In this document: piece by piece, positions 39,860 to 64,000 of the stretch
Position numbering within the stretch: position 1 is the stretch's first letter
Layout of the letters: every line of letters begins with the position of its first letter
The notes under the pieces: model-generated
What the model saw: only the letters and a program-made list of their open reading frames with translations
Databases searched by the model: none
Told to the model about the DNA's origin: nothing
Program-made: the position numbers and the translations under genes
Source: Bacteroidales bacterium
GTDB taxonomy: Bacteria > Bacteroidota > Bacteroidia > Bacteroidales > Bacteroidaceae
Direction: 5' to 3'
DNA length: 64,000 nt
Assembly: GCA_015060835.1 (NCBI GenBank)
Contig: SUXT01000001.1
Coordinates: 5,277-69,276 of the forward strand

Positions 39860-39880
39860 ATTTATAAATTGAAGATTATT

Positions 39881-41968: not shown

Positions 41969-41990
41969 TAAAACTATAAATATAACTATT

Positions 41991-43346: not shown

Positions 43347-43362
43347 AAAATATTTTTATATT

Positions 43363-43794: not shown

Positions 43795-43798
43795 TCTG

Positions 43799-45388: not shown

Positions 45389-45404
45389 AATTGGTTAGAC
45401 CATT

Positions 45405-48400: not shown

Positions 48401-48938
48401 TAATGGCTCTAAACAATTTGAACTTAATATAGCCAAGGATTCTATGATAAGAAACATCTTCGCTGCTGTTTATGAAGATAGAACAATAAATGAAATTGAC
48501 AAAATAAATATATGCAGCAATCCTAAACCTAAGGCAGCAACTGTAAATGGTGCATTGTTGGGCTTGAGTCAAGGTACATTGGCTACAAACAGGGAGTCTG
48601 CTACTAATAGAGTGGTAATGCTTGGTGATTGCGCCCACTCTTATAGAGTTGACCCGATTGTTGATTATGCCGTTGTTGATAATAAAGACGGTTACAAGGA
48701 AGCTGTTAAGGAAAATGTCAATAAGTTCTTTGAATACTTCTATGATAAGGTATATACAACAGCAAGTCCTGTAAGAACTATAGAACATGTGAAGGAGGCT
48801 ATTGACTATGTATCTGGCGATCCGAAATTGAATCTACCTGATAATGGTATTATTTCAGATTCGTTCTTCTTCCAATACATAGCTTTGGTTATGCAGAAAT
48901 TGTCAATGGACTTGGTTAAAGCAGGTTATGCCAAGTAA
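45405..48938 (+). CDS. Large soluble protein: unassigned roughly 560-aa N-region plus C-terminal Hsp70/actin-fold ATPase domain
   Basis: 1177 aa. VTVAIDLGTSNTYVAY (phosphate-1), IIWSYPLSF, LTVLLDIGGGSTDVIGY (phosphate-2), TIYLTGNGSKQF and ATVNGALLG (adenosine region) are present. I saw no TM segment. Confidence 0.75.
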   Translation: MNKFEFGMKAVQQDGLNGDFKIYDSNLGGNYNPYNSTYFDREENRVVCPDNGRITSIPSPYARMHITDLAFREANSGSANGEPPIALSLDYNIALSHCLDIFEMLFYSDAEDLEEKGVSVEKIDLVRTNTTNVEEKALLNANPKLKAYISTLDLYRDEYVSVLDHIRNDKHVNQYLFDFNSLYLFKYKGKVFASTSPLTGFFATANCNIGDLVINGNNILSSNPNHIREIGQRTSEFREFMYSLLFHTGLCHIFKNLFIYVKNSLDANQIATIDQNPFQNQRQYLKFNIGGQHLLQVKDNLYIRPGGIDCSYLKYYLYLAPPVDFAITEQDYATKLNERQFNGQLVSWYGVNDILSDALFVLTYDINDNYVSVPYVDINKDCKAYKRCLLPIKRGALDFFTVDELCNGLRIEKRDHSKYVATLKITLLNGGTITLRREYTAGDACYPNGKVFQGDDMKPFAFGIYPFVKSTQFANMYKVLFYNHFDKYSLKFYKKDANGINPLLETETKVNKTNNIHNQEFGVNCEYHDINIQTNILEFAEIEVSGLTSLIIPNLRMVGEANDGASIAVDHNTEVTVAIDLGTSNTYVAYSRRPFGGGTIAEKDIIPISTHHSGNVEWNELTFMNKKCEQADLATAPEKNREDLYLRVSDFDNKPVDTWLSSQLNEFIPSRIDPNGDNYSFPIPTVINFLRRNCGRPQFDPNAQESPLIDFAIPFAYYERGIRTGGSGANVYDLISNGSDFKWYEKRNNKGTLVKNEVFEAAFKAFLSELMFIVRCHLICSGHDLTLCKIIWSYPLSFSSSLRDEYDRAWKEAYKKYINPTVANNIDDYVKYTNESRSPIYACINNPGAINHLTVLLDIGGGSTDVIGYKNNNVQFVTSFGFAGNALYLASGMNTVSEGDQMDGTLLKRFVIKQRIFSGIGSNPNSAEMEEKKISTSDSICTLMNYGFAKAEYDFVKIFQNDSAQFMLQLHNAAIIYHVAQLCKIYSPDELPDTIYLTGNGSKQFELNIAKDSMIRNIFAAVYEDRTINEIDKINICSNPKPKAATVNGALLGLSQGTLATNRESATNRVVMLGDCAHSYRVDPIVDYAVVDNKDGYKEAVKENVNKFFEYFYDKVYTTASPVRTIEHVKEAIDYVSGDPKLNLPDNGIISDSFFFQYIALVMQKLSMDLVKAGYAK

Positions 48939-48946
48939 TAATATAT

Positions 48947-48988
48947 ATATCAGACTTTGATACTGTGAATGGTATCAAAGTCTGATAT
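48947..48988 (+). terminator. Perfect 17-bp stem hairpin inside the island gene array (terminator, attenuator or processing site)
   Basis: atatcagactttgatac-tgtgaatg-gtatcaaagtctgatat lies 9 nt after the stop at 48938 and 14 nt before the ATG at 49002. No clear T-run follows. Confidence 0.5.
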
Positions 48989-49001
48989 GAAATAACAAAT
49001 T

Positions 49002-49628
49002 ATGGGAATGTTTATTAATGAGAATGAAACTGCAGAAAAGCAATTTAGAGATATTGATAAAACTCTGAATGGCTTGTTTGATAGAATTGATTCGGTTGAG
49101 GAGAAACTTGAAACTTTAAAGCTTGTGTTGGGCAAACTGTCTGACAGTTTGCAAGAGATGTCGTTATCTATAAAAACGGCATTAAATCAAGCGTGTGATG
49201 TAAATGAGAGTATAGAGACATCATGCACAATTCCTGCTTCTGAAGAAAAAGAGCCAATACACGAATGTGCCCCTGAAGAGAAAGTCGGTGCAGACGTAAA
49301 AGTCGAAAGTGAGTTTGAAATACGCTTTTTGGGTGCACCTTCGGGTAGTGGTTTTGAAGTGATGAACGAAAGAACCGAAAAAAGTATTTCTACCTTATAT
49401 ATACTTGAAATTGACAGAGCCAATAAGATAGCATATTTCTATCCTAATAAAGAAAATATTGCCAAACTTGTATATGATAAGCCGCATAATCTTGAACCCG
49501 TATGCGACATTGAAGGGGTGGTTGATTCTTTGTGTGACTTGTATATAAGTAAAGATGATTATGGTGTTTTGCATCTTGAAGCTCCGGATTATTGGAAAGT
49601 TCAAAAAAAATGTCTTATTAAATGTTAG
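49002..49628 (+). CDS. Hypothetical protein, N-terminal coiled coil
   Basis: 208 aa. It has a heptad-like N-terminus (LFDRIDSVEEKLETLKLVLGKL), an acidic linker and a small C-terminal domain. Confidence 0.6.
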   Translation: MGMFINENETAEKQFRDIDKTLNGLFDRIDSVEEKLETLKLVLGKLSDSLQEMSLSIKTALNQACDVNESIETSCTIPASEEKEPIHECAPEEKVGADVKVESEFEIRFLGAPSGSGFEVMNERTEKSISTLYILEIDRANKIAYFYPNKENIAKLVYDKPHNLEPVCDIEGVVDSLCDLYISKDDYGVLHLEAPDYWKVQKKCLIKC

Positions 49629-49632
49629 TTGA

Positions 49633-50712
49633 ATGAAGAAAATATTAATTTACATTTGTGTTCTTATTTTGGTGGTAGTTATGATCTGGCCGGAGCAGAA
49701 TCTGAAAATAGCTTCTGTAGTGGATGGTAATACCGTAGAATTGAATAATGGAACAACTGTGCATCTTATAGGTGTTAATAGTACTAACGAAGGTAAAATC
49801 GAACTGGAGGGATTGATGGGAAAAAGTTTGTTGTTGGTTCCCGATAAAACTGCATTCTTTAATCCCGATCTTATTGACAAAACCTCTACGGTATATGCTT
49901 ACGCTGTTGTTGAAGATGACAATGTGTGCATAAACGCATCGTTACTCAAAAATCGCTATTCTAATCTCGAAGAGAACTCATATTTGAATGATAGTCTGAA
50001 TTCATTCAGAAAATATGCCGAGTCAGGGCGAAGAGCTTTGACACCTGAGCCTACCCCAACTCCTAAACCAGTCATAGATTATCAGGAGGAGGAGATATAT
50101 CTCGATCCGTATATACCATCTTCTGAACGCAAGCATAGTGCATGGTATAATGATGGAAGTATGAATTTGGAGATGCTTGAGGAGGCTTGTGACTTTAATT
50201 TGCCATATACAAAAAAATTTGCAAATGAACTTGCTGCACGTTCACCTGGTAGCTTCAATCCAGGACAGATATGTGAAATTTTTGCATATTGCTATAAGAA
50301 ATGGAGTTATGTCAACGATCCCGCAGATGTTGAATATGTCGCTCGTGCATCAGAAACAATTCATGGTTCATTAATTGGTGATTGCGACGATTACGCAGTT
50401 TTGATGGCGTCATGTATACTTGCAGTTGGAGGTCGCGCTTGTATAAACACTGGTTATAATTCCAGTGGTGGACATGCTTTTACCGAGGTTGATATATCCA
50501 ATTTTGATGAAAATGAAGTCTATAGTGTTATATGTAAATATTTCCCTGAGTATAATATACAAAATCTGAATTACAGAATAGACGGACAACACAAGTGGTT
50601 GAATCTGGATTGGCAAACTCAATATCCCGGAGGTAAATATTATGATTGTTCTTATAAGTGGGACAGTTATCCTTATGAAAAAGGCAAGTGGGTTTGGAAA
50701 AAATTGAGATAA
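49633..50712 (+). CDS. Membrane-anchored/exported protein: SNase-like OB-fold (catalytic residues apparently not conserved) plus transglutaminase-like cysteine protease domain
   Basis: 359 aa. N-terminal hydrophobic segment ILIYICVLILVVVMIW. VVDGNTVELNNGTTVHLIGVNS resembles the thermonuclease DGDT...RL.GIDAPE strand pattern without the Arg/Asp/Glu. GDCDDYAVLMASCILAVGGRA ... GGHAFTEVD fits the transglutaminase-core Cys/His arrangement. Confidence 0.6.
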   Translation: MKKILIYICVLILVVVMIWPEQNLKIASVVDGNTVELNNGTTVHLIGVNSTNEGKIELEGLMGKSLLLVPDKTAFFNPDLIDKTSTVYAYAVVEDDNVCINASLLKNRYSNLEENSYLNDSLNSFRKYAESGRRALTPEPTPTPKPVIDYQEEEIYLDPYIPSSERKHSAWYNDGSMNLEMLEEACDFNLPYTKKFANELAARSPGSFNPGQICEIFAYCYKKWSYVNDPADVEYVARASETIHGSLIGDCDDYAVLMASCILAVGGRACINTGYNSSGGHAFTEVDISNFDENEVYSVICKYFPEYNIQNLNYRIDGQHKWLNLDWQTQYPGGKYYDCSYKWDSYPYEKGKWVWKKLR

Positions 50713-51095: not shown

Positions 51096-51228
51096 GAAAA
51101 TAAAATTCAAACAGCTTCTTATAATCAAGGATGACACGTAATAAGAAATGTTAAAATCATTATTGCGGGGTTACTAATTTTACAAATCATACATAAATAC
51201 ATAAATTGTTAAACCAAATTAATGTACT

Positions 51229-52266
51229 ATGAATTTTATGAGAAAAATTGTTTCGTTTGGATTACTTGTCGTATCTGCAATGTTTTTTATGGCAGCTGTC
51301 CCGTTTTCTAAATGCGGAGTAAAAAAGAATTATGCAAAGATAGAACGTTTGACAAATAATGACTCTGTATATTTTGTTCCCCATGAAATAAAGAAGACAG
51401 ATGTTGTCGATTTATTAAAAAGAGAGACATTATATAATATAACAGAAACATTTGCCCCCTTGCATTATGCAGATGCAGTATTTTTGGATTCCGTAGTATT
51501 GAGTACATTGGCATCCAAACCATTGGAATGTACAAAAACATGGAGATATAAGACTATAGATGCTTTGTATTACTCTCCGGATGTGTATGTAGAAGGATTT
51601 GTTAAAACAAGTAAGGGGTTGAGTCCTCGTTATTGCTTGTATATAGATACTAAATCGAGAAAAGCACACATTACTTTGCTTAAAAATGACAAAGTTTATA
51701 CATCTGATGTATATTCGCAACAGGATTCTGTAAATATTGATGCGGTAATAGAAATTTTTAAAAACTATTCAATAAAGAGTGATATGAAGGAAACAAAACA
51801 AGAAGATGTTCTTTTCCCGCCATCTCCCGACAAAAATAGTTCCACATATTTAAAAGATAAAACTTCGGAGTATATATTTAATGCTATTAAGAATTGGGAA
51901 TTATCAAGCGTGATGTTGATTGATCCTATGGGTAACAAGGGAAAACTGATGCATGGTTTTACTATATTTGAATCATGCGACCGTATTTCTACTGAAAATT
52001 CAAAGAGAATAAAGGATATTCTTGTGGCTTCATCGAGTTATAAACAAAGTGATGTCGTTAAAAATTCAACATTCTTACCCGATTATGCGTGTCGTTTTTC
52101 CAAGGATGGTGAATATGTAGATGTTCTTGTTGCTTTATATTGTGATGATATTAAAATATATCATAAGGATAAAGAGTACACATTGGATATATCTCCCTCA
52201 CATAAAGCGTTTGCGAACTATATCCAAACGATATTCCCTAATGATAAATACATAAAAAAATATTGA
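51229..52266 (+). CDS. Exported hypothetical protein
   Basis: 345 aa. N-terminal hydrophobic segment IVSFGLLVVSAMFFMAAV. I recognise no motif. Confidence 0.6.
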   Translation: MNFMRKIVSFGLLVVSAMFFMAAVPFSKCGVKKNYAKIERLTNNDSVYFVPHEIKKTDVVDLLKRETLYNITETFAPLHYADAVFLDSVVLSTLASKPLECTKTWRYKTIDALYYSPDVYVEGFVKTSKGLSPRYCLYIDTKSRKAHITLLKNDKVYTSDVYSQQDSVNIDAVIEIFKNYSIKSDMKETKQEDVLFPPSPDKNSSTYLKDKTSEYIFNAIKNWELSSVMLIDPMGNKGKLMHGFTIFESCDRISTENSKRIKDILVASSSYKQSDVVKNSTFLPDYACRFSKDGEYVDVLVALYCDDIKIYHKDKEYTLDISPSHKAFANYIQTIFPNDKYIKKY

Positions 52267-52268
52267 TT

Positions 52269-53033
52269 ATGTTGCGAAAATACATTGTTTTGGCCTTATT
52301 GGTGTTTAGTATACCATCGTGTTATTCTCAAAAGCTTCATGCGTTGTTCTATGTAAACGAACAGGAACAGGGTCGTGAGGTGGATAGAAGAGCCGATATG
52401 AAGAATATGTACAATTTTTGGGGTGATGTTGCCAATAATATTGGTTACAAATATTCTCCTGTCAAGTGTACGCCGAATACATTTACAGCAAGTAATATAA
52501 ATTCGAAGATTAACGGATTGAATGTAGAACGGAATGACATTGTTGTATTTTATTATAGTGGGCACGGGTATAACGATGAGTCGGATATTTGGCCGACTTT
52601 GAATCTGTTGGACAAAAATTATAGGCAAATTGACATAATGAAGAAACTGAAAAATGTCTCTCGTAATGCTAAGTTGGTATTGTGTATTGCTGATTGCTGC
52701 AACAAGCAGTTGACATCTGCTTATGATTTTACAGCGTCGTATGATGCTATGGATGATAATGATAATGCTCTGAAAAATCTCTTTACAGGTTTTAAAGGGA
52801 AAAAATCGATAATGATGTCTGCCAGCAAGCAAGGACAATATTCCTGGAGTCATTTGCAGTATGGGGCTTACTATGGAAATTGTTTTAGGCAAGTTCTTTC
52901 CCGCTTGTCTACAACACATCCAACTTGGGATGTAGTGCTCAATGATATATCAAAATTGACATTAAAATATACGGAAGGTAGACAAAAGCCTCAGTTTAAT
53001 ATTACTCAATCTGGAGACCCTTTTGAAGATTAA
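52269..53033 (+). CDS. Caspase-like (peptidase C14 fold) lipoprotein
   Basis: The ATG at 52269 is preferred over the TTG at 52263. Lipobox FSIPSC. His-Cys dyad context VVFYYSGHGY and LVLCIADCCN. Confidence 0.7.
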   Translation: MLRKYIVLALLVFSIPSCYSQKLHALFYVNEQEQGREVDRRADMKNMYNFWGDVANNIGYKYSPVKCTPNTFTASNINSKINGLNVERNDIVVFYYSGHGYNDESDIWPTLNLLDKNYRQIDIMKKLKNVSRNAKLVLCIADCCNKQLTSAYDFTASYDAMDDNDNALKNLFTGFKGKKSIMMSASKQGQYSWSHLQYGAYYGNCFRQVLSRLSTTHPTWDVVLNDISKLTLKYTEGRQKPQFNITQSGDPFED

Positions 53034-53036
53034 TAT

Positions 53037-54929
53037 ATGATTGTGATTAAGATGGACCGTATAAAATATAATCTAATTCTTTGTTTGTTTTTGTGTGTAG
53101 CATTCTGTAGTGGTGTTTACGCTCAAAGCAAAACATTGCACTTTATTTATTTTGCAGATACAAACGATTCTGAAGTCGGAAAAAGCTCGGAAGAGGCAAA
53201 TAGGTATTTTATAAATAATTTTATACCTATGGTTAAACAGAATACAACTTTGAACGTGAAAACATATTGTTTCTATGGGCAGGATTTCCAAAAGAATAAA
53301 CTGAATAGTGTTATTAATGATTTGCAAACAAACAGCAATGATGCTATATTCTTTTATTATACAGGTCATGGATTTAATCAGGACAGTAATGACTTTCCCA
53401 CGTTGACGTTAGGTTTGCGAGGAGATGCTTTATCTTCGAGAACAAAACCCTTGTTGGATATTTATAATACGTTAAGAGGCAAACCGCATCGCTTGTTAAT
53501 GGTAATAGCAGAAGCTTGTAATGCGGTATATGGAAGTAGATCAAATGCAGGAAACTACACTGGAAGTTATGATGCTTTTGAGGGCGATAATACAAAATTA
53601 CAAACTTTATTTGCGGAATCAAGCGGCGATTATTTGATGTCAAGTAGCAAAAAGGGGCAAAGATCATTCTGTCCGACCGGCGGATTGGGATATTTTACAA
53701 GAGGATTCAAGGATGCATTAGATGAAAGAACAAGTAGCTTTTCTGTGTCCTCATTTTTAAATAAAATAGCCATTAATACAACAAAATATGCTGGCGATTA
53801 CGCTGCGGAAGAACAGCATCCTCAATGGTTGTCAGGAGTGTATTCTGATGGTAAGTCTAAAAAACCAAGTTTGACTCCTTCGGGAAGCACAAAAAAGGCA
53901 TCCGGTGAATTTGATGATGTCAATATCGAAACATCGGGCGAGAATCTTGTTGTTAAGGTTACTTTTTCCATAAGTAATATGAAAGACAAGGATGGAAGAG
54001 TAGTGTGCTATTTTTATGATGCTGATGGCAATGAATTGAAAGATTTGAACTCTTTATATACAACTACTGATGGTTATGTCTCTGTCGGTAAAGATATAAA
54101 ACCTAGTTATGAGAATTCTACTTATACCGATTTGGAGGTTACTATTCCAAAATCAGAACTGCATCAGAGTGGCGTAAATGCAAGAATTTTGAAAGTACAA
54201 GTTCTTGTGTGGGATAAATCCAAATCGGAATCAACTGAGTTGTTTAGAAGTGGGTATGAGTCTTTTAGTTTTATTCCAAGTGAATCATATTTGAAAATAG
54301 ATGGTACAACGTCTGATAAAACTGTGCAATTTGGAGAAAACGGCGGAGAGGAGACCTTTGATGTAAATACCAGCGCTGATTCATTTGAAACTTGGGGTGT
54401 GCCTTCATGGTGTAAAATATCAAAAAAGACATCAACTTCGTTTACATTGGTTTGCGAATCGAATCCTAACTCAGATGATAGGTCGGATTATATGAAAGTT
54501 AAAGCTGCGGGAAAAGAAATCAGAATTGACATTTCACAGGATGCAAACAGTGGCCCCTCTGCCGAAATTGAAAACATTTGGGTTGACCATAATCAAATGA
54601 ATGGTTGGTATAAAGGAATGTGTATCCATGTAAAGTTTTCAATAAATGGAATGAAAGGTAGGCGTTGTAATGTTATTGCTGCATTTTATTACGGTGATAA
54701 TTCTACTCCTTTGAGAAATCAATATGGTGGTAATCTTACATACAATGCTTATGGAAATGTAAACCATGATCCTGGGCGTTACGATGATTTTACTTTATTC
54801 GTGCCGTATTCAGGCTTGTATTTAGTAGGTTCCGGAATGGCTAATTTTTCTTTTGACATAATAATCAATGACGATAGCGGAAATAAATTGGCAAGACATA
54901 ATAATATACAATTTACATACTGTCAGTAA
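53037..54929 (+). CDS. Exported caspase-like domain protein with C-terminal beta-sandwich and BACON-like domains
   Basis: 630 aa with a signal peptide. IFFYYTGHGF and LLMVIAEACNA form the His/Cys dyad. A later segment GGEETFDVNTSADSFETWGVPSWCKISKKTSTSFTLVCESNPNSDDRSDYMKVKAAGKEIRIDISQ resembles BACON. Confidence 0.7.
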   Translation: MIVIKMDRIKYNLILCLFLCVAFCSGVYAQSKTLHFIYFADTNDSEVGKSSEEANRYFINNFIPMVKQNTTLNVKTYCFYGQDFQKNKLNSVINDLQTNSNDAIFFYYTGHGFNQDSNDFPTLTLGLRGDALSSRTKPLLDIYNTLRGKPHRLLMVIAEACNAVYGSRSNAGNYTGSYDAFEGDNTKLQTLFAESSGDYLMSSSKKGQRSFCPTGGLGYFTRGFKDALDERTSSFSVSSFLNKIAINTTKYAGDYAAEEQHPQWLSGVYSDGKSKKPSLTPSGSTKKASGEFDDVNIETSGENLVVKVTFSISNMKDKDGRVVCYFYDADGNELKDLNSLYTTTDGYVSVGKDIKPSYENSTYTDLEVTIPKSELHQSGVNARILKVQVLVWDKSKSESTELFRSGYESFSFIPSESYLKIDGTTSDKTVQFGENGGEETFDVNTSADSFETWGVPSWCKISKKTSTSFTLVCESNPNSDDRSDYMKVKAAGKEIRIDISQDANSGPSAEIENIWVDHNQMNGWYKGMCIHVKFSINGMKGRRCNVIAAFYYGDNSTPLRNQYGGNLTYNAYGNVNHDPGRYDDFTLFVPYSGLYLVGSGMANFSFDIIINDDSGNKLARHNNIQFTYCQ

Positions 54930-54975
54930 GGTGTTTTTGTAGTAGGATGTTCAATAAATAACAAGTAATAGGAAG

Positions 54976-55353
54976 ATGTTTTTTTGTTTTTTTAAAGGCT
55001 TTTATGCCATGATGTTTGCTTTGTTTGTAATATCATGTGGCAATGCTGTAGATTCGGCAAATGAGAAGTCGGCATCGAAAACAAATGCAAAGACAACAGA
55101 TGCTTCCCAAAGCATCATAGTGAACAATGCTTCAAGTGGAAATTTATCTACCCAGTCACTAAGTAATAGTGCGAGCGGTAATGCTTCTCGTCAGTTTGTC
55201 AAGACAAAAAACAGATGTAGCAAATGTTCTTGTTCGGGTTATTGGGGATACAAACACTTGAATGGTACATACGAGGGTAATTGTTCAAACACTGACAAGT
55301 ACGGACACAAATGCGGACATGGACCAGAAAAACATGGCTTGAAAAAATGGTAG
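54976..55353 (+). CDS. Small lipoprotein with a Cys/His-rich C-terminus
   Basis: 125 aa. Lipobox FVISCGNA. It has a Ser/Asn/Ala-rich linker and the C-terminal cluster CSKCSCSGYWGYKHLNGTYEGNCSNTDKYGHKCGHGPEKHG. Confidence 0.55.
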   Translation: MFFCFFKGFYAMMFALFVISCGNAVDSANEKSASKTNAKTTDASQSIIVNNASSGNLSTQSLSNSASGNASRQFVKTKNRCSKCSCSGYWGYKHLNGTYEGNCSNTDKYGHKCGHGPEKHGLKKW

Positions 55354-55380: not shown

Positions 55381-55413
55381 TTGTAAGGCATCCTGTTGTG
55401 GGATGCCTTACAA
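55381..55413 (+). terminator. Terminator-like hairpin at the right edge of the AT-rich island
   Basis: ttgtaaggcatcc-tgttgtg-ggatgccttacaa, a perfect 13-bp stem, lies 28 nt after the stop at 55353. Confidence 0.6.
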
Positions 55414-56270: not shown

Positions 56271-57620
56271 ATGAAAGCAATAAAAATAGCTCTGCATTGG
56301 CAAATGTGCATCGCTCTTGTGCTTGGAGCCGTGTGTGGTTTTGCATTCTGCGACAGTGTTGGCGTATGGGGTAATTTTATTGATGGGGTAGGAGAAATAT
56401 TCCTGAGAGCCATAAATATGATAGTCATCCCATTGGTCTTCCTGTCGACAGTGTTAGGAATATCCACTGTAGCCGACACGAAATCAATGGGTAGGGTGGC
56501 TCTTAAAACATTTCTCTATTTTGCGGTTACGGCTATTATGGCTGCAATTGTCGGTGTATTGGTTACAAACTTGCTCCGTCCGGGGTATAACACGCATAAA
56601 GTCGATGTGTCGGCCGAAGAAACTTATGTCGATAGCGGCGCGGGAACAGTCAATCTTCTCTTGGCAGAAGATGTTGTGGTCGACGGCAATATTGTAGCTC
56701 CGCAAGGAACTGTAGTGAAGACGACTGTTGACAACGCTGCCGAACCGTCAACCCTCATGGATAGGATAGTCGACATTGTACCTGACAATATCTTCGAAGC
56801 ATTCAGCACCGGCAACATCCTGCCGATAATTTTTTTCTCGTTGCTGCTCGGATACTTTATCACCAAGATACACACAGATCGTCAAAAGACGATAAACAAC
56901 CTCTTCGAAGCATTGAACGATGTGATAATGTCCCTCACCAATTTTATCGTTCGGTTTGCGCCGGTCGGAATATTTGCAGTGGTGATGTTACTGGTTGGAA
57001 GGCAGGCCAGCGATGTGAGTGCTTTGAAAGAGTGTTTCAAGAGTTTTGCTTTCTTCGTCCTTGTTGTGTGGATTTCGCTCATAGTAATGGGCGGCATCCT
57101 GCTTCCGGTGATGGTAGGGATTATGGCAAAGGTTTCCCCGCTGAAGCATCTGAAGCAGATATATTCGGCATTGATGGTGGCATTTTCCACCAGTTCATCA
57201 TACAGCGCCCTGCCACTGATTATCACAGATGCGCGTGAGAAGATGGGTGTGTCGAACAATATAGCAAGTTTTACGGTACCCCTCGGCATTACATTCAACA
57301 AAATAGGTACCATCGTCTACGAGTGTGTGGCGGTCATTTTTGTGGCACAGGCTGTCGGCGTGGATCTGACTGCGGCGCAGCAGATGTCGCTCATCGGAGC
57401 ATCCATAGTGACGGTGCTGGGCGCACCGAGCGTTCCTATGGCCGGTGTAGTTGTGCTGACAATGCTTCTGACGGCAATGGATTTGCCCACCGATTACATA
57501 GGAATGTTTATGGTTGTCGACATCCTGTGCGATATGCCAAAGACATTGCTCAATGCATACAGCGTCAGCTGCAGCGCAATAATCGTTGCGCGAAGCGAAG
57601 GAGAAGTTCTTAAAATTTAA
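56271..57620 (+). CDS. Dicarboxylate/amino acid:cation symporter (DAACS/GltP family)
   Basis: 449 aa, polytopic. SSSYSALP, VPLGITFNKIGT and AIIVAR match conserved DAACS features. A roughly 60-aa insertion lies after the third TM segment. Confidence 0.8.
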   Translation: MKAIKIALHWQMCIALVLGAVCGFAFCDSVGVWGNFIDGVGEIFLRAINMIVIPLVFLSTVLGISTVADTKSMGRVALKTFLYFAVTAIMAAIVGVLVTNLLRPGYNTHKVDVSAEETYVDSGAGTVNLLLAEDVVVDGNIVAPQGTVVKTTVDNAAEPSTLMDRIVDIVPDNIFEAFSTGNILPIIFFSLLLGYFITKIHTDRQKTINNLFEALNDVIMSLTNFIVRFAPVGIFAVVMLLVGRQASDVSALKECFKSFAFFVLVVWISLIVMGGILLPVMVGIMAKVSPLKHLKQIYSALMVAFSTSSSYSALPLIITDAREKMGVSNNIASFTVPLGITFNKIGTIVYECVAVIFVAQAVGVDLTAAQQMSLIGASIVTVLGAPSVPMAGVVVLTMLLTAMDLPTDYIGMFMVVDILCDMPKTLLNAYSVSCSAIIVARSEGEVLKI

Positions 57621-57634
57621 AACATAATGAGAGT

Positions 57635-58513
57635 ATGAAAAACATATATACTATATTTCTGCTGTTGGCAATGGTTCTTGTGCCCGTATCGGTGTCAGCG
57701 CAAACAAAACGCGCTCTGGTAATAGGTCTGGGCCAATACGAAGACAAGGAGTGGAGCAAGATAAACGGCGACAAGGATGTTCCGATTGTCTGTGAATATC
57801 TCAAAAAAGCAAAATACAGCCAGATTGACACTCTTGTAAACAAGCAGGCTACAAAGGTCGGTATAACGTCGGCATTCCGTAAATTGGCAAGTGACTGTAA
57901 CCCCAACGATATAGTATACATCCACTTCTCCGGTCATGGCCAGCCAATGAAGGATATTAACAAAGACGAGAAGGATACGCTGGATGAATGTTGGGTGCCG
58001 TATGATGCCTATCTCAAACCCTGTGCGAAGGACAGAGGCGAAAAACACCTCGTCGATGACGAAGTGAACAGTCTGCTGAACAACATCCGCGATAGGATTG
58101 GCGATGGCGGCAAGATGCTGGTGGTGATAGATGCCTGCTTCAGTGGTACCGCCACACGAAGTCCGGAAGAGACGCTAAGAGGAGTAGGGTATATATTCGA
58201 AGCCGTGAAGTCATACCTCGAAGAACCGGCTGAGGAAAGTGCCGAGCCGGCAGCGGAAAACGAACGCTGGATTACACTGAGTGCATGTACGAGCAATCAG
58301 GTAAATGTCGAGATAAATGTCCCTAAAATAGGCAATGTGGGTAAGCTCACCTACGCCATCCACCAGAATTTGAAGAATGGCGACTTGGGTACCAACGAGA
58401 ACTTTTTTAAAAAGATACGCATATTCGTAAAAAAAAATACCAGCGGTCGTATGCAAAAACCTGAAATGACCGGCGAAACAACAAAGTACAACATAAATGA
58501 CATATTAAGATAA
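57635..58513 (+). CDS. Exported caspase family (peptidase C14) protein
   Basis: 292 aa. Signal peptide LLLAMVLVPVSVSAQ. ALVIGLGQY, VYIHFSGHGQ and MLVVIDACFSG form the His/Cys dyad. Confidence 0.8.
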   Translation: MKNIYTIFLLLAMVLVPVSVSAQTKRALVIGLGQYEDKEWSKINGDKDVPIVCEYLKKAKYSQIDTLVNKQATKVGITSAFRKLASDCNPNDIVYIHFSGHGQPMKDINKDEKDTLDECWVPYDAYLKPCAKDRGEKHLVDDEVNSLLNNIRDRIGDGGKMLVVIDACFSGTATRSPEETLRGVGYIFEAVKSYLEEPAEESAEPAAENERWITLSACTSNQVNVEINVPKIGNVGKLTYAIHQNLKNGDLGTNENFFKKIRIFVKKNTSGRMQKPEMTGETTKYNINDILR

Positions 58514-58514
58514 T

Positions 58515-59174
58515 ATGGCAATAATAAGATTAGAGACACAAGAATGCAAAGAGGCCCGGATGGTTGCCGGAATGTACAATGGCGACCGTCTGTTGCAATA
58601 CAAGTTGTATGAGTATTGCTACCGATATTATTATGAGAAATACCGCAGCATATTTTATGCCACCGAAGATGCTGTGGCAGATATTTTTCAGGACTCATTC
58701 ATACAGTTCTGGGAAAATATAGAATGTGGGAAAATCTATGTTGAAGACAATGTTGTCAAGGGAAAGGACGGAAAACCTCTATGCGGAAGCATCAGAACCT
58801 ATTTCATGGGAATAGCACGGTTGAAGTACTTGGAATGGGTAAGGGAACACCCATTCTCTGCCGACCCCGAAACAGAAATGGGCAAGAAAATCAAGAGCGA
58901 CGGCTTCGACGAGCAGGAGTATCTGGAGATGACATATGGTGATAGCGACAATATCAAACTGGAAATATTGGCACATGTAATCTCCCATATGCCAGCACGT
59001 TGCTATGAAATACTCACGAAATTCTACTATGAGGGCAAGGATCTTGATAAAATTCTGGAAGAAATTCCCTCTATAGAATCGAAAAATGCCCTGAAGACGA
59101 AGAAATACAAATGTATGGAGAATCTTCGCGAAGTGGCAAACGATACATACAACAGATACATTAAGGATATTTAA
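58515..59174 (+). CDS. Sigma-70 family (ECF-like) RNA polymerase sigma factor
   Basis: 219 aa. Region 2-like DIFQDSFIQFW and region 4-like ARCYEILTKFYYEGKDLDKI are present. It starts 1 nt after the caspase stop. Confidence 0.75.
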   Translation: MAIIRLETQECKEARMVAGMYNGDRLLQYKLYEYCYRYYYEKYRSIFYATEDAVADIFQDSFIQFWENIECGKIYVEDNVVKGKDGKPLCGSIRTYFMGIARLKYLEWVREHPFSADPETEMGKKIKSDGFDEQEYLEMTYGDSDNIKLEILAHVISHMPARCYEILTKFYYEGKDLDKILEEIPSIESKNALKTKKYKCMENLREVANDTYNRYIKDI

Positions 59175-59183
59175 GTTTGGGAT

Positions 59184-59711
59184 ATGAATAAAGATTTTCA
59201 GGATAGAATAGATGACTATATATTCGACAGGATGTCTGTCGAGGATAGGGACCGCTTTGAAGCAGAGGTCAATTCGGATGATGCAAAAAAGGAACAGCTT
59301 GAATTTACCCGTAATGTAAAGCGTGCCGTAACATCACGCGAGGAGAAGCTGGCAAGAATCCGGGAAATGAAACTGATGTACGACGAACGGCACATAGTAG
59401 CTGCCACAGGCACTGCCGACTCATCCCCTGCACCGGCTTATATGCCTGGCTCTCCCAAGAGAACGCTGAAACGTGTCTTGCTGTGGGCCTCAGGCATTGC
59501 CGCAATATTGGCAGTGGGACTCTTTACGGTGAATACATATTTTATGGACTCTTCATTCGATGAAGAAGGTATTCGCGGAATAGAGGATATCGAGATATTC
59601 GATCCCTCAGGCGATGTCCCCAACGGTACGGTTCCCGGTGATACAAATTCCGTTGATACCACTGTTATTGACAATGAAAAAAACAATGAGGGTATCAATG
59701 AAAATGAATAG
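59184..59711 (+). CDS. Anti-sigma-factor-like single-pass membrane protein
   Basis: 175 aa. The N-terminal DDYIFDRMSVEDRDRFEAEV pattern is common in Bacteroidota anti-sigma N-domains. TM VLLWASGIAAILAVGLFTV is followed by a short acidic exported tail. Confidence 0.55.
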   Translation: MNKDFQDRIDDYIFDRMSVEDRDRFEAEVNSDDAKKEQLEFTRNVKRAVTSREEKLARIREMKLMYDERHIVAATGTADSSPAPAYMPGSPKRTLKRVLLWASGIAAILAVGLFTVNTYFMDSSFDEEGIRGIEDIEIFDPSGDVPNGTVPGDTNSVDTTVIDNEKNNEGINENE

Positions 59712-62700
59712 ACTTGTATTATTACTGCTTGTCGGCATGTTGGCAATCCCCCGTTTGGCGGCCCAGACACTTACCGGGGATGAAGTATTTGCAATGTTGA
59801 AGCGCGCTTCGGCATTGAAGCAGGAAAAAAAATACTCCGAAGCAATCAAAGTGTATACAGATGCAAGCAAACATCTGAAGAATCACTCCGGCGAGCAGGA
59901 ACGTAAAGCATATGTCATGTGCCAAATATTGATATGTTCATGCTATTTCGACTTGGAACAATATAAAGAGGGCTATAGTTTGGCAAAAAGTATGCTTGCA
60001 GGCGACTTTGGCGATGATGAAAAAGAACTTATCCGTAGCCAGTATGTCCTTAATGGCTACGGATTGGCTTGTGAATTATTAAAAAATGCGGAAAATAATA
60101 GTTCGGATTGTGTGGCAGCGCGTGGATTATTCCTGGAAATATTGCCATATGCCAGTGAGCAGGTGAGGCAAAAAGTGTTGCCAAAAATACCGTATTTGTG
60201 GTATATGGAAGGAGCATTACATTTTATATCGGAAAAATACGATGATGCCCTAGTATGCTACGAGAATGCATTAAAAGAATATAAAGAACAAGGGCAAACC
60301 TCCAATGAAATATATGTTATCAAGCAAATAGCGTCTATATATTCACACATAGACCAAATCTCCAAATCCATAGAATACTACGAGCAGGCATTAGCTTTAA
60401 TCCAAACCATCCATGCCGACGACAAGCAAATGGAGGTGGCTGCGCAGTTGTATCGCTTGGCTGATAATGTCGGAAATATGGACAAAAAGTCCTATTATTC
60501 TCAAATGATGGACAAACTGTATGCGACAACAAAAAACATAGATGCTATCTTTGAATATTGCATCCACAAAGGCAAAGTGTCGCAAGAACAAAGACAGTAC
60601 CAAATTGCAGAGCTATGGTTCAAAAAAGCCGAGGGGGTAGCTCTAAGGCAAAGCGCTGATGGAAACAAAGGAAACCTTTATTTGGTTAACTACAACTTGG
60701 GTTTTCTGTATTACAATATGGAGCGTTACGATGAAGCAGACGACTATTTGTGCCGGTCGCTCGAAAATAATGAAATTAGTGTCGCAAACTACTTGACATA
60801 TATATTAAAAGCAGAAATATGTATTAAAAGAGGTGATACTGAGAGATGCTCTGAATATTTGGAGCAATTGAATTCGTTGTCGCTAAGCGAGCCACGAATG
60901 TTGAGTAAATTGTACGCGACCAGTGGCGATTATTATTATGCGACAAAAGATTATGCATCGGCTCTTGCCTACTATAAAAAAGCCGATGATATAATGGCAA
61001 CGAAGTATCCGGACTCTGATAGCGAAAGAACAGATCTATATTCAAATCTTGGCGGCACAGAGCATAAACTTGAAAATTACGAAAAATCGGAATTTTATTA
61101 CAATAAGTATGTCGAAGGCATTAAGGCTATATACGGAGAGGATAATCTGAATTATATAAGAGCCTGTATATATCTTGCAAACGCACAAGCCTTTGCCGGA
61201 CACATGAAGCAAGGCTGCGACAACTATACATCGGCTATAGCAAGGCTCAAGAAGGTTCTCAGACAGCGCCTTCCATATATGAATGCCGCAGAGCGCGAAG
61301 GTTTTTGGGAACCGCTCTCATCCCTGCATACAAATATGACACCCTTTGCGCTTAAAGCCGGGCTCTGCCAAACGGAATACACCCGCACCTGCTACGATGC
61401 TCTTCTGCTCTCCAAAGCATTCCTGTTGGATTCGGAACGCTCGGTTTACGAAATAGTCCAAAAAGAGGGCAACGAGGCCGACAAACAGACATATATGCAA
61501 ATCTCCATCATAAACAATAAAATAAAAGAGTGGGAGAATAACTATGCCCTGTATGCAGACAGCATCCTTGCAGCCACCAACAAGATGAACAGACTGGAGA
61601 AAAAGCTGATGGACAGATGCAAATCATTTGGCGATATAACAGCCTTCATGGATGTGGATTATGATGCTGTGAAAGCAAAACTTGGCAAGAATGAAACATT
61701 GCTTGATTTTACAGACTATTTCTCTAAAGAAAATGGCAGACGCTACGCAGTCTACATCGTAGACAAACAGCAGCAGTTTCCGTTGTTGAAATACGTTTTT
61801 GCCGAATCACAGATAGACTCTTTAGGCATAACTGATGCCCCTCATCTGTTTTATGATACAGAAGATTTTGCTTCAGAGGTAGTCAAATTGCTGTGGAATC
61901 CAATAAAGGAGCACATAGACGAGGGTTCCACCGTCTATTATGTGCCGTCGCAGTTGCTGTTCCGCGTCAGTCTTGAGTCCTTGCCGCTCGAAGATGGAAC
62001 ATTGCTTGGCGAGCATTACAATTTCGTGCGATTGTCTTCAGCCCGCGAACTTCTGAAAAAAAATAAGTCAGACAAATTGAAAAATAATGCATCGGCAGTT
62101 CTGTACGGAGGTCTGCAATACGACCTTGAACCATCGCAGATGGCCGAAAATTCCAAACTTTACGATGTGTCTGACCTGATGGCTGTGCGTGGCAATAGTG
62201 ATGCCGTCCGCGGTAATTCCGACTTTAAGGAACTTGCCGCCTCAGGCCCTGAAGTTGAGAAAGTAGCAGAGATACTCAAAGGCTCAAACTTCAAGGTTAC
62301 TCCATATATGGGAATGAACGGTACCGAAGAGTCATTCCTTAATATGCATGGAAAATCGCCGCGAATTCTGCATCTTGCGACACACGGGTTTTACTACACT
62401 CCCGAAGCAGCAGCAGATGTTGATTATCTGCGTGGATATAGTGATGCCATGTTGCTCTCCGGTATGATTATGTCGGGAGGAAATGCCGGTTGGAAAGGTA
62501 AAGAGCTGCCCGAAGGGGTGCTCGATGGTGTGCTTACCGCAAACAGTATATCACGTCTCGATTTGAGCAATACAGACTTGGTAGTCCTCTCGGCTTGCCA
62601 TTCAGGGCAGGGCAATGCAACACCCGAAGGTCTCTATGGTTTGCAACGTGCATTCAAGAAAGCGGGTGTAGGAACTATGATAATGGCTCTTTGGGAGGTA

Positions 62701-62856
62701 AACGATACAGTGGCCTCCGAATTTATGAAAATGTTCTATGAAAATCTTCAGAAGAACAAATGGGACAAACGCAAGGCATTCAATTTGACTAAGCTGCAAA
62801 TACGGACACTGTATCCCTCTCCCGACCAGTGGGCGGTATTTGTGATGTTGGATTAA
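59698..62856 (+). CDS. Exported TPR-repeat protein with a C-terminal CHAT (caspase-like) domain
   Basis: Start set at the ATG at 59698 (MKMNRLVLLLLVGMLAIPRLAAQ), overlapping the previous gene by 14 nt. There are multiple TPR-like helices (YSEAIKVY, YDDALVCYENALKEY, YASALAYYKKA). The CHAT dyad context is ILHLATHGFY and LVVLSACHSGQG. Confidence 0.8.
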   Translation: MKMNRLVLLLLVGMLAIPRLAAQTLTGDEVFAMLKRASALKQEKKYSEAIKVYTDASKHLKNHSGEQERKAYVMCQILICSCYFDLEQYKEGYSLAKSMLAGDFGDDEKELIRSQYVLNGYGLACELLKNAENNSSDCVAARGLFLEILPYASEQVRQKVLPKIPYLWYMEGALHFISEKYDDALVCYENALKEYKEQGQTSNEIYVIKQIASIYSHIDQISKSIEYYEQALALIQTIHADDKQMEVAAQLYRLADNVGNMDKKSYYSQMMDKLYATTKNIDAIFEYCIHKGKVSQEQRQYQIAELWFKKAEGVALRQSADGNKGNLYLVNYNLGFLYYNMERYDEADDYLCRSLENNEISVANYLTYILKAEICIKRGDTERCSEYLEQLNSLSLSEPRMLSKLYATSGDYYYATKDYASALAYYKKADDIMATKYPDSDSERTDLYSNLGGTEHKLENYEKSEFYYNKYVEGIKAIYGEDNLNYIRACIYLANAQAFAGHMKQGCDNYTSAIARLKKVLRQRLPYMNAAEREGFWEPLSSLHTNMTPFALKAGLCQTEYTRTCYDALLLSKAFLLDSERSVYEIVQKEGNEADKQTYMQISIINNKIKEWENNYALYADSILAATNKMNRLEKKLMDRCKSFGDITAFMDVDYDAVKAKLGKNETLLDFTDYFSKENGRRYAVYIVDKQQQFPLLKYVFAESQIDSLGITDAPHLFYDTEDFASEVVKLLWNPIKEHIDEGSTVYYVPSQLLFRVSLESLPLEDGTLLGEHYNFVRLSSARELLKKNKSDKLKNNASAVLYGGLQYDLEPSQMAENSKLYDVSDLMAVRGNSDAVRGNSDFKELAASGPEVEKVAEILKGSNFKVTPYMGMNGTEESFLNMHGKSPRILHLATHGFYYTPEAAADVDYLRGYSDAMLLSGMIMSGGNAGWKGKELPEGVLDGVLTANSISRLDLSNTDLVVLSACHSGQGNATPEGLYGLQRAFKKAGVGTMIMALWEVNDTVASEFMKMFYENLQKNKWDKRKAFNLTKLQIRTLYPSPDQWAVFVMLD

Positions 62857-62915: not shown

Positions 62916-62962
62916 AAAGTAACCCATCGGCAAATAGAATGAATTTGCCGATGGGTTACTTT
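62916..62962 (+). terminator. Terminator-like hairpin after the CHAT gene
   Basis: aaagtaacccatcggcaaat-agaatga-atttgccgatgggttacttt, a perfect 20-bp stem followed by tatt. Confidence 0.65.
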
Positions 62963-62995
62963 TATTGCAATACCATCATTAATGTCAAAAAAGTT

Positions 62996-63880
62996 ATGAA
63001 AAACAATAATTATTCTAACGTTTGGGTGGTATTGCTACTTGCAGTTGTGATGGCATTCCCTTCGGGAGTGTGTGCCCGAGAATTTACAGTTGCTGAGTCT
63101 CAGACTGTGGAAACAGTGCCGGATTTTAAGTGGTATAGTAACTTATGGGGGCATTTGCAGTTTGCTGCCAATATGGGTATCAATATGTATGGCGATAATG
63201 TCATCAATTCTTGTATCAATCATTTGGGCCATGACGATGGTGCCTATTCGCAACTCGGAATGAAAGGTTCTTTCGAGGTGATGTATAACATCTATGAGCG
63301 CAAAAAAATGAATTTCTGCGCTGGAATTGGTTTTGCATTCTACTGTCAGAACTTCAAGAAAAATTATATATATTTTGTCGATGAAGGCTCCATCGCGACA
63401 TTTATGAACACAAACAACGCAGACATCATCGCAAATATGGACTCCAAACAACCGGCTGATTTTGATTATGATGATGCTGATTGGAACTCTTCATACTCAG
63501 TATTCTACGTAACATTCCCTGTAAGCGTTTCTTATAGTGCAGGCAAAATTGAATACAGTGCAACATTATTGCCTGCAGTCCGCCTCGGCAGAACATCGTT
63601 GCGCCGGAATATATCTGCTTGTCATGGAGTAGACGATGTGGAGAATATATTATACACAAATGCAGATAGACGTCTTGACGGGCATATCAATAGGTTTGCT
63701 TGTAATATCAGACTAAGTTGTATCTATTGCGGATTCGGTGGTTTTGTGGAATTTGGTACGGTCTCTATGACAAAAGGATTGAAGTACGACACATATTCTT
63801 TCTCTGTTGGCATGCAATTACGGATTGCAACGAAAAACTTTGGAAAGACGAATGAGCAAAATAACATTACTAACTATTAA
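62996..63880 (+). CDS. Putative outer-membrane beta-barrel protein
   Basis: Start trimmed to the ATG at 62996 (MKNNNYSNVWVVLLLAVVMAFPSGVCA). It has alternating-hydrophobic strands and an aromatic-rich pattern. The family is unknown. Confidence 0.5.
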   Translation: MKNNNYSNVWVVLLLAVVMAFPSGVCAREFTVAESQTVETVPDFKWYSNLWGHLQFAANMGINMYGDNVINSCINHLGHDDGAYSQLGMKGSFEVMYNIYERKKMNFCAGIGFAFYCQNFKKNYIYFVDEGSIATFMNTNNADIIANMDSKQPADFDYDDADWNSSYSVFYVTFPVSVSYSAGKIEYSATLLPAVRLGRTSLRRNISACHGVDDVENILYTNADRRLDGHINRFACNIRLSCIYCGFGGFVEFGTVSMTKGLKYDTYSFSVGMQLRIATKNFGKTNEQNNITNY

Positions 63881-63893
63881 ACAACATCTTTGT

Positions 63894-64000
63894 ATGATGA
63901 GAAATGGAGAAATCGTTAACAAGCTGGGGGCATTGGTGGCGGATATGAACTATATTGCAGCTATCGGCTGGTGGCACTTTGAGCATGATAACCATCGTAT
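63894..64000 (+). CDS. Start of an unidentified ORF running off the right edge
   Basis: My own translation is MMRNGEIVNKLGALVADMNYIAAIGWWHFEHDNHR..., which is too short to assign. Confidence 0.25.
   Translation, partial: MMRNGEIVNKLGALVADMNYIAAIGWWHFEHDNHR

Follow-up and report, generated by a model that had tools for sequence, protein, structure and literature searches.

Organization of the Four-Gene Cassette

The stretch analyzed here (the window, 64,000 nt) derives from a Bacteroidales bacterium of the family Bacteroidaceae (assembly GCA_015060835.1, contig SUXT01000001.1, positions 5,277 to 69,276 of the forward strand), and the positions given below are those of the window unless a contig or locus is named. 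The list of open reading frames (ORFs) and the junction sequences revealed four co-directional ORFs (57635-62856, forward strand) that encode, in this order, an exported protease of peptidase family C14, a sigma factor of the extracytoplasmic function (ECF) type, a candidate anti-sigma factor, and an exported protease that joins a tetratricopeptide repeat (TPR) region to a CHAT domain (Table 1). Comparison with related loci established the identities of these genes, their conserved order, and an oriented, locus-specific sequence motif. The cassette is a real and conserved regulatory unit, for which a proteolytic step is proposed below.

The genes are tightly packed. The stop codon of the C14 gene (TAA, 58511-58513) is separated by 1 nt from the ATG of the sigma gene (58515), and the sigma stop codon (59172-59174) by 9 nt from the ATG of the anti-sigma candidate (59184), whose own stop codon (TAG, 59709-59711) lies within the CHAT gene. 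An original prediction, made from the sequence of the window, had described the four ORFs, the 1-nt and 9-nt gaps, the His/Cys dyads and signal peptides of both proteases, and a single-pass protein with an acidic tail, all of which were confirmed in the sequence. The 14-nt overlap that it gave for the anti-sigma candidate and the CHAT gene holds if the latter starts at ATG 59698, but shrinks to 8 nt with ATG 59704, which is the likelier start because an 8-nt overlap was the commonest arrangement in related loci (15/36) and CHAT homologues start with MN(R/K). The sigma and anti-sigma genes of the window share one reading frame (59184 - 58515 = 669), with TAA and three codons between them. A common frame was observed in 26 of 53 loci, usually with one TAA and three or four codons between the genes and with no evidence of read-through seen; it may reflect shared ancestry only.

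The claim that the four genes form a coupled unit stood with respect to the genes and their tight spacing, but was probably too narrow for this genome. The transcription unit here probably consists of six genes, because an ORF for a 147-aa membrane protein and a gene for an SDF-family symporter lie directly upstream of C14, separated by gaps of 1 and 14 nt. This pair recurred in just four related loci (L006/7, L011, and L014) and is a lineage-specific insertion ahead of C14 that is probably co-transcribed with it. A terminator-like hairpin (55382-55412) closes the operon preceding the 147-aa ORF, and a strong intrinsic terminator follows the CHAT gene, with its 3' arm overlapping the first bases of a promoter motif at 62954.

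Table 1. Features of the cassette and its surroundings.
Feature	Position	Strand	Evidence or remarks
Exported metacaspase-type C14 protease, 292 aa	57635-58513	+	Pfam Peptidase_C14 E 2e-19; PADLOC caspase E 1e-16
Divergent ECF-type sigma factor, 219 aa	58515-59174	+	hhalign, NCBIfam, AlphaFold2, Foldseek
Single-pass zinc-less anti-sigma candidate, 175 aa	59184-59711	+	Position after sigma gene, weak PF13490, co-fold
Exported TPR-CHAT protease, 1050 aa from 59704 or 1052 aa from 59698	59704-62856	+	Pfam CHAT E 3.9e-44 and TPR families
Intrinsic terminator hairpin after CHAT gene, 15-bp arms and T-run	62921-62957	+	Sequence read directly
Candidate sigma-dependent promoter, GGTTAC-N16-TCATTA	62954-62981	+	Sole pattern match in window; 15 nt before ATG 62996
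First cargo gene, exported 294-aa protein	62996-63880	+	Behind motif; same place after CHAT gene in Alistipes (L006) and L011
YbjN-like cargo gene, 141 aa, runs off window	63852-64000 (contig C50 69128-69553)	+	Pfam YbjN weak, E 0.007
Motif site 2	~300 nt past window end		Before second divergent sigma (189 aa) and 77-aa partner
Second divergent sigma-like gene, 189 aa, and 77-aa partner	Contig C50 69572-70434 (L103:1348-2210), ~300-1160 nt past window end		Weak Sigma70_r4_2, E 5.5e-4
Motif site 3	~1.2 kb past window end		Before 74-aa exported Cys/His-rich protein
Membrane protein ORF, 147 aa	55826-56269	+	1-nt gap to SDF symporter gene
SDF-family symporter	56271-57620	+	Pfam SDF E 1.6e-99; 14-nt gap to C14 gene
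Weak candidate motif copy, GGTTAC-N16-ACATAA (tentative)	51169-51196	+	33 nt before ATG 51229; position weight matrix score 18.6, equal to weakest training site
Upstream cluster: exported 345-aa protein, 256-aa C14 caspase, 630-aa C14-BACON protein, 125-aa lipoprotein	51229-55353	+	Pfam C14 E 1.2e-11, 1.5e-7

Features of the Encoded Proteins

The 219-aa protein matched the NCBIfam model TIGR02937 (sigma70-ECF) with an E-value of 2.8e-8 and 33.6 bits, which is under the curated cut-off of 42.9 bits, and had no Pfam match above threshold. When a profile of 16 sigma homologues was compared by hhalign with a profile of nine canonical ECF sigma factors of the same genome, a probability of 96% was obtained (E 4e-9) over 151 columns that include sigma-2 and sigma-4. 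Across these two domains, the AlphaFold2 model had a predicted local distance difference test (pLDDT) of 85-93, and sigma-2 carried a beta-hairpin insertion of about 15-20 residues between regions 2.2 and 2.3. The top 15 PDB matches of the sigma/anti-sigma model in Foldseek were all sigma factors, including 12 of the ECF type, and most were in complexes with anti-sigma factors (SigE-RseA, SigW-RsiW, AlgU-MucA, and BldN-RsbN at the top; probabilities of 0.85-1.0). By sequence, the sigma profile retrieved no sigma factor from PDB and gave one spurious match to an S-layer protein. The assignment of the 219-aa protein as a divergent ECF sigma factor is sound. A distant paralogue was located on contig C112 (34781-35359; L002/L101), with 23% identity (E 1.5e-9) and 48.6 bits against TIGR02937; it is followed by a gene for a 245-aa membrane protein and is not linked to caspase-fold genes.

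The 175-aa product of the next gene consists of an N-terminal three-helix domain (residues 1-75), a transmembrane helix (approximately residues 99-117), and an acidic, disordered, exported tail. Its one hydrophobic segment (LLWASGIAAILAVGLFTV) is preceded by KRTLKR, and the tail of 59 residues contains 16 Asp/Glu and only two Lys/Arg. The gene was found directly downstream of sigma in 53 loci, and the members of this family share a conserved N-terminal segment (FQDRIDxYLL..M...E...F..E...D) followed by a basic stretch, a transmembrane helix, and a variable acidic tail. Arg131-Gly132 lies in the exported tail, and an Arg-Gly pair is kept in most short-tailed members. No Pfam family was assigned to the 175-aa protein; residues 1-69 contain no Cys or His, and the H-x3-C-x2-C zinc ligands of the zinc-associated anti-sigma (ZAS) subclass are absent. 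The family comprises 689 cluster representatives, the best 150 of which are all 85-367 aa long and include no natural fusion of an anti-sigma factor to CHAT.

For co-folding, the sigma stop codon was read as glycine and both proteins were folded as one chain, a device that makes no claim of read-through, with an alignment of 24 natural in-frame read-through rows (the window and 23 loci with the same in-frame layout). AlphaFold2 returned a predicted template modeling score (pTM) of 0.63 despite about 100 disordered residues, with pLDDT values of 80-93 for residues 1-75 of the anti-sigma candidate, which formed three helices, and below 50 for the transmembrane helix and tail. An unpaired alignment, in which sigma and anti-sigma homologues were added to the fusion as separate rows, was discarded, since MAFFT placed the anti-sigma rows on the sigma half. 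The 175-aa protein is likely the anti-sigma factor of the adjacent sigma factor, to which it would bind.

The CHAT protein has a hydrophobic signal peptide that ends with LAA ahead of QT, and contains the motifs ATHG and LSACHSGQG. The corresponding dyad, His896 and Cys967, was kept in 43-44 of 44 homologues. In the AlphaFold2 model (pLDDT 87, pTM 0.78), a long TPR superhelix of about 30 TPR-like helices is followed by a caspase-like domain. Its best match in PDB by Foldseek was DdvA, an anti-sigma factor of Myxococcus solved by cryo-EM (8rot_A, E 9e-12), followed by human separase and the craspase subunit Csx29 (8eey_B, template modeling scores of 0.40/0.54), with E-values of about 1e-11. DdvA was reached by this fold search, whereas a search of PDB by sequence retrieved TPR proteins only. 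The protein belongs to the CHAT proteases (PF12770; the separase/craspase/DdvA TPR-CHAT class) and is the sole CHAT protein of the genome.

The C14 protease contains the motifs FSGHG and DACFSG with the catalytic residues His101 and Cys168, behind a hydrophobic signal peptide that ends with VSA ahead of QTKRALVIG. A signal peptide ending in A-Q was present in nearly all C14 and CHAT homologues, and this is the usual context of signal peptidase I in Bacteroidota. The closest solved relatives are metacaspases, namely Yca1 (4f6o, E 5e-9), TbMCA2, and AtMC4, with which the window enzyme shares the acidic motif SGHG...D..DE.D..DE...P.D. His101, Cys168, and the acidic string after SGHG were invariant in 57/57 homologues. 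Judged by these features, the enzyme belongs to the metacaspase/orthocaspase branch of family C14. Metacaspases cleave after Arg or Lys, and the same specificity is predicted for the window enzyme from its family membership. The match to the NCBIfam model caspase_w_EACC1 was weak (30 bits, cut-off 140), and PADLOC, when run on the four cassette genes and ten cargo proteins, returned its generic caspase model only and no known defense system.

Two further positions of the C14 protease are of note. Arg182-Gly183 (58178-58183), which lies 14 residues past the catalytic Cys, was invariant in 57/57 homologues; this pair may be a site of autoprocessing, similar to the Arg-Gly of the anti-sigma tail, or a feature of the structure. 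Residue 169 (58140-58142) is Phe (DACFSG) in the window and in the close relative L011, and His (DACHSG) in 55 of the 57 homologues. The gene identities, the export of both proteases, and the anti-sigma-like architecture given in the original prediction are supported.

Conservation and Distribution

One genome per species was scanned, which gave 80 loci that were annotated with the proteins of the window. The sigma gene was present in 64 Bacteroidales loci, 49 of which had enough flank on both sides for gene order to be counted. The order C14, sigma, anti-sigma, CHAT was exact in 35 of these 49, and both proteases occurred in another order in two, so that they were adjacent to the sigma/anti-sigma pair in 37. 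The original prediction had made its claim depend on conservation of this order in Bacteroidota, and it survives this comparison. The cassette extends across Prevotella, Segatella, Bacteroides, Phocaeicola, Paraprevotella, Muribaculaceae, Paludibacteraceae, and Alistipes. The C14 and sigma genes were spaced by -1 or +1 nt in 32/50 loci, and the sigma and anti-sigma genes by 10-15 nt in 42/53 (3-15 nt in most of the 53). Across these sequences, such tight spacing is beyond chance.

In Muribaculaceae, the order is kept with a divergent anti-sigma factor that carries a TPR tail. Spirosomataceae and Flavobacterium contained a related sigma gene followed by a transmembrane anti-sigma factor with a periplasmic TPR domain, and a TPR-CHAT gene (Pfam E 1e-53 to 1e-55; C-terminal membrane anchor) adjoins on the opposite strand. 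No C14 gene was found in these loci. The association of sigma, anti-sigma, and TPR-CHAT is thus phylum-wide, older than the addition of C14, and independent of the cargo, because the trio occurs in Spirosomataceae and Flavobacterium without C14.

Within the family to which the window belongs, 29 of the 401 species sampled and 12 of 35 genera carried sigma. Because a sample taken across the order is spread evenly over families, it yielded sigma in just two of 401 genomes, and the family-level sample is the informative one. The closest relative of the sigma factor sits in another genus, and no homologue was present in the plasmid and phage collections searched. The cassette is an accessory, horizontally moving island.

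Candidate Promoter Motif and Regulon

The sequence GGTTACTTT...TCATAA was first noticed upstream of C14 genes in several loci. The pattern GGTTAC-N15-17-TCAT(A/T)A occurred at 79 sites in 1.31 Mb of related loci, compared with roughly 0.5 expected from base composition (a rough estimate). The sites were intergenic and located 14-181 nt before an ATG; 77 of the 79 shared the strand of the sigma gene, and in 75 the spacer measured exactly 16 nt. In extended form, the consensus reads GGTTAC TTt ... TCATAAA c A G nn AAA. No consensus-type copy was found in 14 loci from Flavobacteriia and Cytophagia. In the whole genome (2.64 Mb), there were three consensus copies, all on contig C50 and at most 2.4 kb downstream of the CHAT gene (Table 1). 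Scans with the pattern and with a position weight matrix (PWM) revealed no motif ahead of either the 147-aa ORF or C14, and thus no autoregulatory copy in the window, although the motif lies ahead of the C14 gene of the operon in five other loci. A PWM match on contig C35 was rejected as a regulon member, being the ordinary TAnnTTTG housekeeping promoter of argR.

The first gene behind the motif, counted at 78 sites, was YbjN-like at 20, encoded small exported CSCSG...C..CGH..H proteins at eight, the second sigma at six, and C14 at five. The remaining 39 were singletons and pairs that included CxxCxGxG-repeat proteins, PP2C, ADP-ribosylglycohydrolase, VWA, and AAA proteins. The exported 294-aa protein that is first behind the motif here had no match in Pfam, NCBIfam, or PADLOC. 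The second sigma and its 77-aa partner lie behind the motif in this genome as well as in five other loci, which suggests a two-tier sigma cascade. Homologues of the upstream cluster (51229-55353) adjoin the sigma gene in L053, L025, L033, L034, and L067, and the 125-aa lipoprotein that ends the cluster (54976-55353) has a Cys/His-rich C-terminus of the same family as the small exported proteins behind the motif; the cluster possibly belongs to the same regulon. All three C14 genes of the genome sit in this island. An ECF switch that runs an island would be expected to show just this layout, in which the sensor module stays constant and the cargo behind a dedicated promoter varies.

Some protein families of the cargo recurred. 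The YbjN-like proteins are cytoplasmic, about 130 aa long, and also similar to chaperones of the type III secretion system. The small exported proteins or lipoproteins with a Cys/His-rich C-terminal module, C.C.GCSCSG(F/Y)...C..CGH....H, were found in the window (54976-55353), on contig C50 (70599-70823), and in L006, L008, L022, L033, L034, L051, and L067. Related small exported proteins carry DnaJ-like CxxCxGxG repeats. Many of all these small proteins are encoded directly behind the motif.

Comparison with Known Systems

DdvA is a single-pass anti-sigma factor in which a cytoplasmic zinc-binding anti-sigma domain and a periplasmic TPR-CHAT region with an intact dyad form one polypeptide; without the TPR-CHAT domain it becomes a substrate of RseP, and its authors proposed that CHAT, once activated by a signal, cuts the linker in trans and thereby provides the site-1 step ahead of RseP (PMC11506125). 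DdvA-like proteins were found by these authors in Myxococcota and one Comamonas only (PMC11506125). The cassette resembles DdvS/DdvA in its ECF-type sigma factor, its single-pass candidate anti-sigma factor with a small N-terminal helical domain, and its periplasmic TPR-CHAT protein with an intact dyad, as well as in the putative control of an adjacent gene island by sigma and the availability of an RseP-type protease. On the other hand, TPR-CHAT is here a separate exported protein from the overlapping next gene, and the two are separate genes in every locus. The anti-sigma factor lacks the CHCC zinc ligands, a second exported protease of the metacaspase type is added, the cargo consists mostly of small exported or unknown proteins rather than of CRISPR genes or a cyclic-oligonucleotide-based antiphage signaling system (CBASS), and the lineage is Bacteroidota. 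The cassette most likely functions in the manner of DdvA. It does not belong to the DdvA family, because its parts are unfused, the zinc site is absent, and the best 150 anti-sigma relatives are all short.

In the type III-E craspase, the TPR-CHAT protein Csx29, together with Cas7-11, cuts Csx30, an inhibitor of the ECF-like CASP-sigma (Science 2022, PMC10028731). The analogy lies in a TPR-CHAT protease that cuts a sigma inhibitor and turns on nearby genes, a cut that is proposed for the cassette, and Csx29 was among the top folds of the window CHAT protein. However, the craspase is cytoplasmic, RNA-guided through Cas7-11, and associated with CRISPR, whereas the sensing side of the cassette is exported and its inhibitor is a membrane protein. 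No cas genes were found in the cassette or its conserved neighbors. The cassette is not a craspase, because it is exported and has no Cas partner.

The type III-B/CBASS hybrid of Haliangium, in which SAVED-CHAT activates PCaspase, whose substrates include a putative sigma factor (bioRxiv 10.1101/2023.06.23.546230), likewise encodes CHAT and caspase together and provides a precedent for a cascade of two proteases. That system is cytoplasmic and responds to cyclic oligoadenylate through SAVED, whereas the cassette has a TPR sensor and two periplasmic enzymes, and a cascade is only proposed for it. In classical regulated intramembrane proteolysis (E. coli RseA, cut by DegS and then RseP; B. subtilis RsiW, cut by PrsW and then RasP), a single-pass anti-sigma factor, an extracytoplasmic first cut, and an M50 site-2 protease are all present; what sets the cassette apart is that its candidate site-1 enzymes are cysteine proteases of the caspase fold from the operon itself, whereas the classical enzyme is a serine protease or metalloprotease with its gene elsewhere. 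Neighborhoods in which an EACC2-caspase occurs with an ECF sigma and a TPR protein were predicted computationally to be caspase conflict systems with a transcriptional output (Kaur et al., eLife 2021, PMC8195603). These also couple a caspase system to an ECF sigma, but their architecture differs: the EACC2-caspase proteins are cytoplasmic and have multiple domains, and the TPR protein is of the DUF1822 type.

The original prediction had stated that no experimental description of such a circuit was known, which no longer holds in view of DdvS/DdvA, Csx29-Csx30, and SAVED-CHAT/PCaspase. In a literature search on the motif, and on a link of orthocaspases to anti-sigma factors or of metacaspases to ECF sigma factors in Bacteroidota, no account of the split form, the promoter motif, or the regulon was found. 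The bipartite motif GGTTAC-N16-TCATAAA is newly described here, and supplies a candidate regulon and reporter promoters. DdvA is the only studied anti-sigma factor with a periplasmic TPR-CHAT region; its signal and proposed self-cleavage are unproven, and its range was believed not to extend past Myxococcota. The same logic would operate in abundant gut and rumen Bacteroidales, with the parts in individual genes and a second caspase-type protease added. Because the genes are separate, site-1 cleavage of an anti-sigma factor by a caspase-fold enzyme becomes directly testable, with protease, tail, and sigma separately open to mutation and purification. Several cultured strains carry the cassette, namely Bacteroides nordii JCM 12987 (L057), Hallella faecis CLA-AA-H145 (L021), Segatella sinensis CLA-AA-H174 (L023), Prevotella sp. 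P2-180 (L022), and Leyella stercorea An906 (L054). The variable and mostly unannotated exported proteins under one dedicated sigma are candidates for functions in defense, antagonism, or envelope remodeling in the gut microbiota.

Proposed Mechanism and Alternatives

The cassette is considered, with moderate confidence, to be the sensor and regulator head of an accessory island, that is, a split extracytoplasmic switch of the DdvS/DdvA type in which one or both proteases cut the anti-sigma tail and sigma drives the promoters that carry the motif. The divergent ECF sigma would be held at the inner membrane by the three-helix N-terminal domain of the anti-sigma factor, whose acidic tail would lie in the periplasm alongside the exported TPR-CHAT and C14 proteins, all of them made from one, probably constitutive, transcript. 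An envelope signal would activate one or both proteases, possibly in a CHAT-to-caspase or caspase-to-CHAT cascade, and the tail would be cut, with Arg131-Gly132 as the candidate site for an Arg/Lys-specific metacaspase. An RseP-type site-2 protease and cytoplasmic proteases would then remove the rest of the anti-sigma factor, and the freed sigma would take RNA polymerase to the GGTTAC-N16-TCATAAA promoters, which in this genome are confined to the island. Its targets would be the genes for the 294-aa exported and YbjN-like proteins, the second sigma with its small partner, and the small exported Cys-rich protein.

Cleavage of the tail by C14 and/or CHAT is plausible, because all the parts are located in the periplasm, the sensor stays the same across loci whose cargo differs, DdvA is the best match of the CHAT protein, and a metacaspase-type C14 fits the Arg-Gly of the tail. 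The original prediction had placed caspase-fold enzymes in the role of the usual site-1 and site-2 proteases. This is not supported: an RseP-type M50 protease is encoded in the genome, and in the DdvA model CHAT takes the place of the site-1 protease alone.

Several points weigh against the proposed switch. C14 alone was present in four of the 49 loci and neither protease was nearby in eight, which leaves 12/49 without one or both; the coupling of the proteases to sigma and anti-sigma is therefore not obligatory, or the loci without proteases are remnants. The match of the anti-sigma family to PF13490 (zf-HC2, which stands for the N-terminal helix of anti-sigma factors; 13 of 16 members, residues 3-27) is weak, with a best E-value of 1e-3, and the Foldseek E-values for sigma are weak as well (0.02-0.5). 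The co-fold is an artificial read-through fusion with a 4-residue linker and just 24 sequences. The -35 element GGTTAC lacks the AAC core that is common in ECF promoters, and the use of the motif by this sigma is assigned by co-occurrence only. Binding between sigma and the anti-sigma factor, promoter use by sigma and, most of all, the cutting of the anti-sigma tail by the proteases are steps that we infer.

Alternatively, the proteases could be outputs. The sigma/anti-sigma pair would then be under some conventional control, such as cleavage by a site-1 protease of the DegS or Prc type or the direct binding of a ligand or partner, and C14 and CHAT would have their targets elsewhere in the periplasm, possibly the many small exported Cys-rich proteins of the cargo, which would be matured, or envelope proteins in a defense or suicide response. 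Much of the cargo indeed consists of small exported proteins that are possible pro-forms, but the cargo behind the motif differs greatly between loci and the proteases do not, which fits an input role for them. The motif lies ahead of C14 in five loci, making the protease itself a regulon member there, whereas the proteases are usually not behind the motif and are co-transcribed with sigma and anti-sigma; moreover, the 8-nt overlap of the anti-sigma and CHAT genes in many loci suggests coupled, stoichiometric synthesis. Some sigma/anti-sigma pairs occur without either protease, although the link of CHAT to the pair persists in Flavobacteriia and Cytophagia among quite different neighbors. The two further exported C14 proteins of the island, which have no obvious regulatory role, and the PCaspase of the type III-B system, which cleaves many proteins, are in favor of outputs, while the nearest structure, DdvA, is an anti-sigma factor carrying the same TPR-CHAT module. 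On balance, an output role, the main rival to the proposed switch, seems rather unlikely.

It is quite improbable that the main role of TPR-CHAT is non-catalytic, as a bulky partner or a sensor of ligands, with a TPR superhelix that binds the tail and shields the anti-sigma factor from RseP, and with the switch triggered by signal-induced release or by a C14 cut alone. TPR domains bind extended peptides, which would suit such a role, and a disordered tail of 59 residues alone would not block the PDZ filter of an RseP-type protease. In older relatives, the anti-sigma factor itself bears a TPR domain, and DdvA becomes an RseP substrate when its TPR-CHAT domain is removed, while its dyad mutants still repress (PMC11506125). 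However, the retention of the His/Cys dyad in nearly every CHAT homologue argues for selection on catalysis; under the shield model, the dyad would serve autoprocessing or another role.

That the genes are adjacent by chance or are a decaying remnant, with the motif being a general Bacteroidales promoter or repeat unrelated to sigma, is hardly credible and already contradicted by the comparative data: GGTTACTTT resembles part of the TAnnTTTG box, and the PWM match on contig C35 is such a housekeeping promoter, but the gene order is kept across families with all genes intact and their catalytic residues conserved, the motif shows a fixed 16-nt spacer and a strict strand bias, its conserved TCATAAA half is missing from the housekeeping promoter, and consensus copies occur only beside the cassette in 2.64 Mb and not at all in the 14 loci of Flavobacteriia and Cytophagia.

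The split switch could also be read more boldly, as a periplasmic caspase cascade that senses danger to the envelope (for example, phage entry, attack by a neighbor, or a host factor). TPR-CHAT and the metacaspase would destroy a minimal anti-sigma factor, which would start a two-tier sigma cascade and lead to rapidly diversifying small exported Cys-rich proteins and further caspases. This extension is unlikely; if true, bacteria would have their own equivalent of protease-triggered innate immune signaling, located outside the cytoplasm.

Neighboring Genes and Other Observations

The G+C content was 46% for the genome, 43% for the cassette, and 35% for the AT-rich operons upstream, which by composition are foreign. 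One long operon of 35% G+C (35921-50712) encodes large proteins that had almost no Pfam match except for one transglutaminase-like domain. Genes of the defense type were neighbors of the cassette in some related loci, including a 1670-aa helicase/restriction-like protein (L044:11775-16787) and a TIR-STALD protein accompanied by a radical SAM enzyme (L008:1277-4018); these hint at defense islands, but no conserved partner is among them. In locus L006 of Alistipes, the cassette is closely preceded by a Tubulin_2 gene and by a gene of the trypsin-like type.

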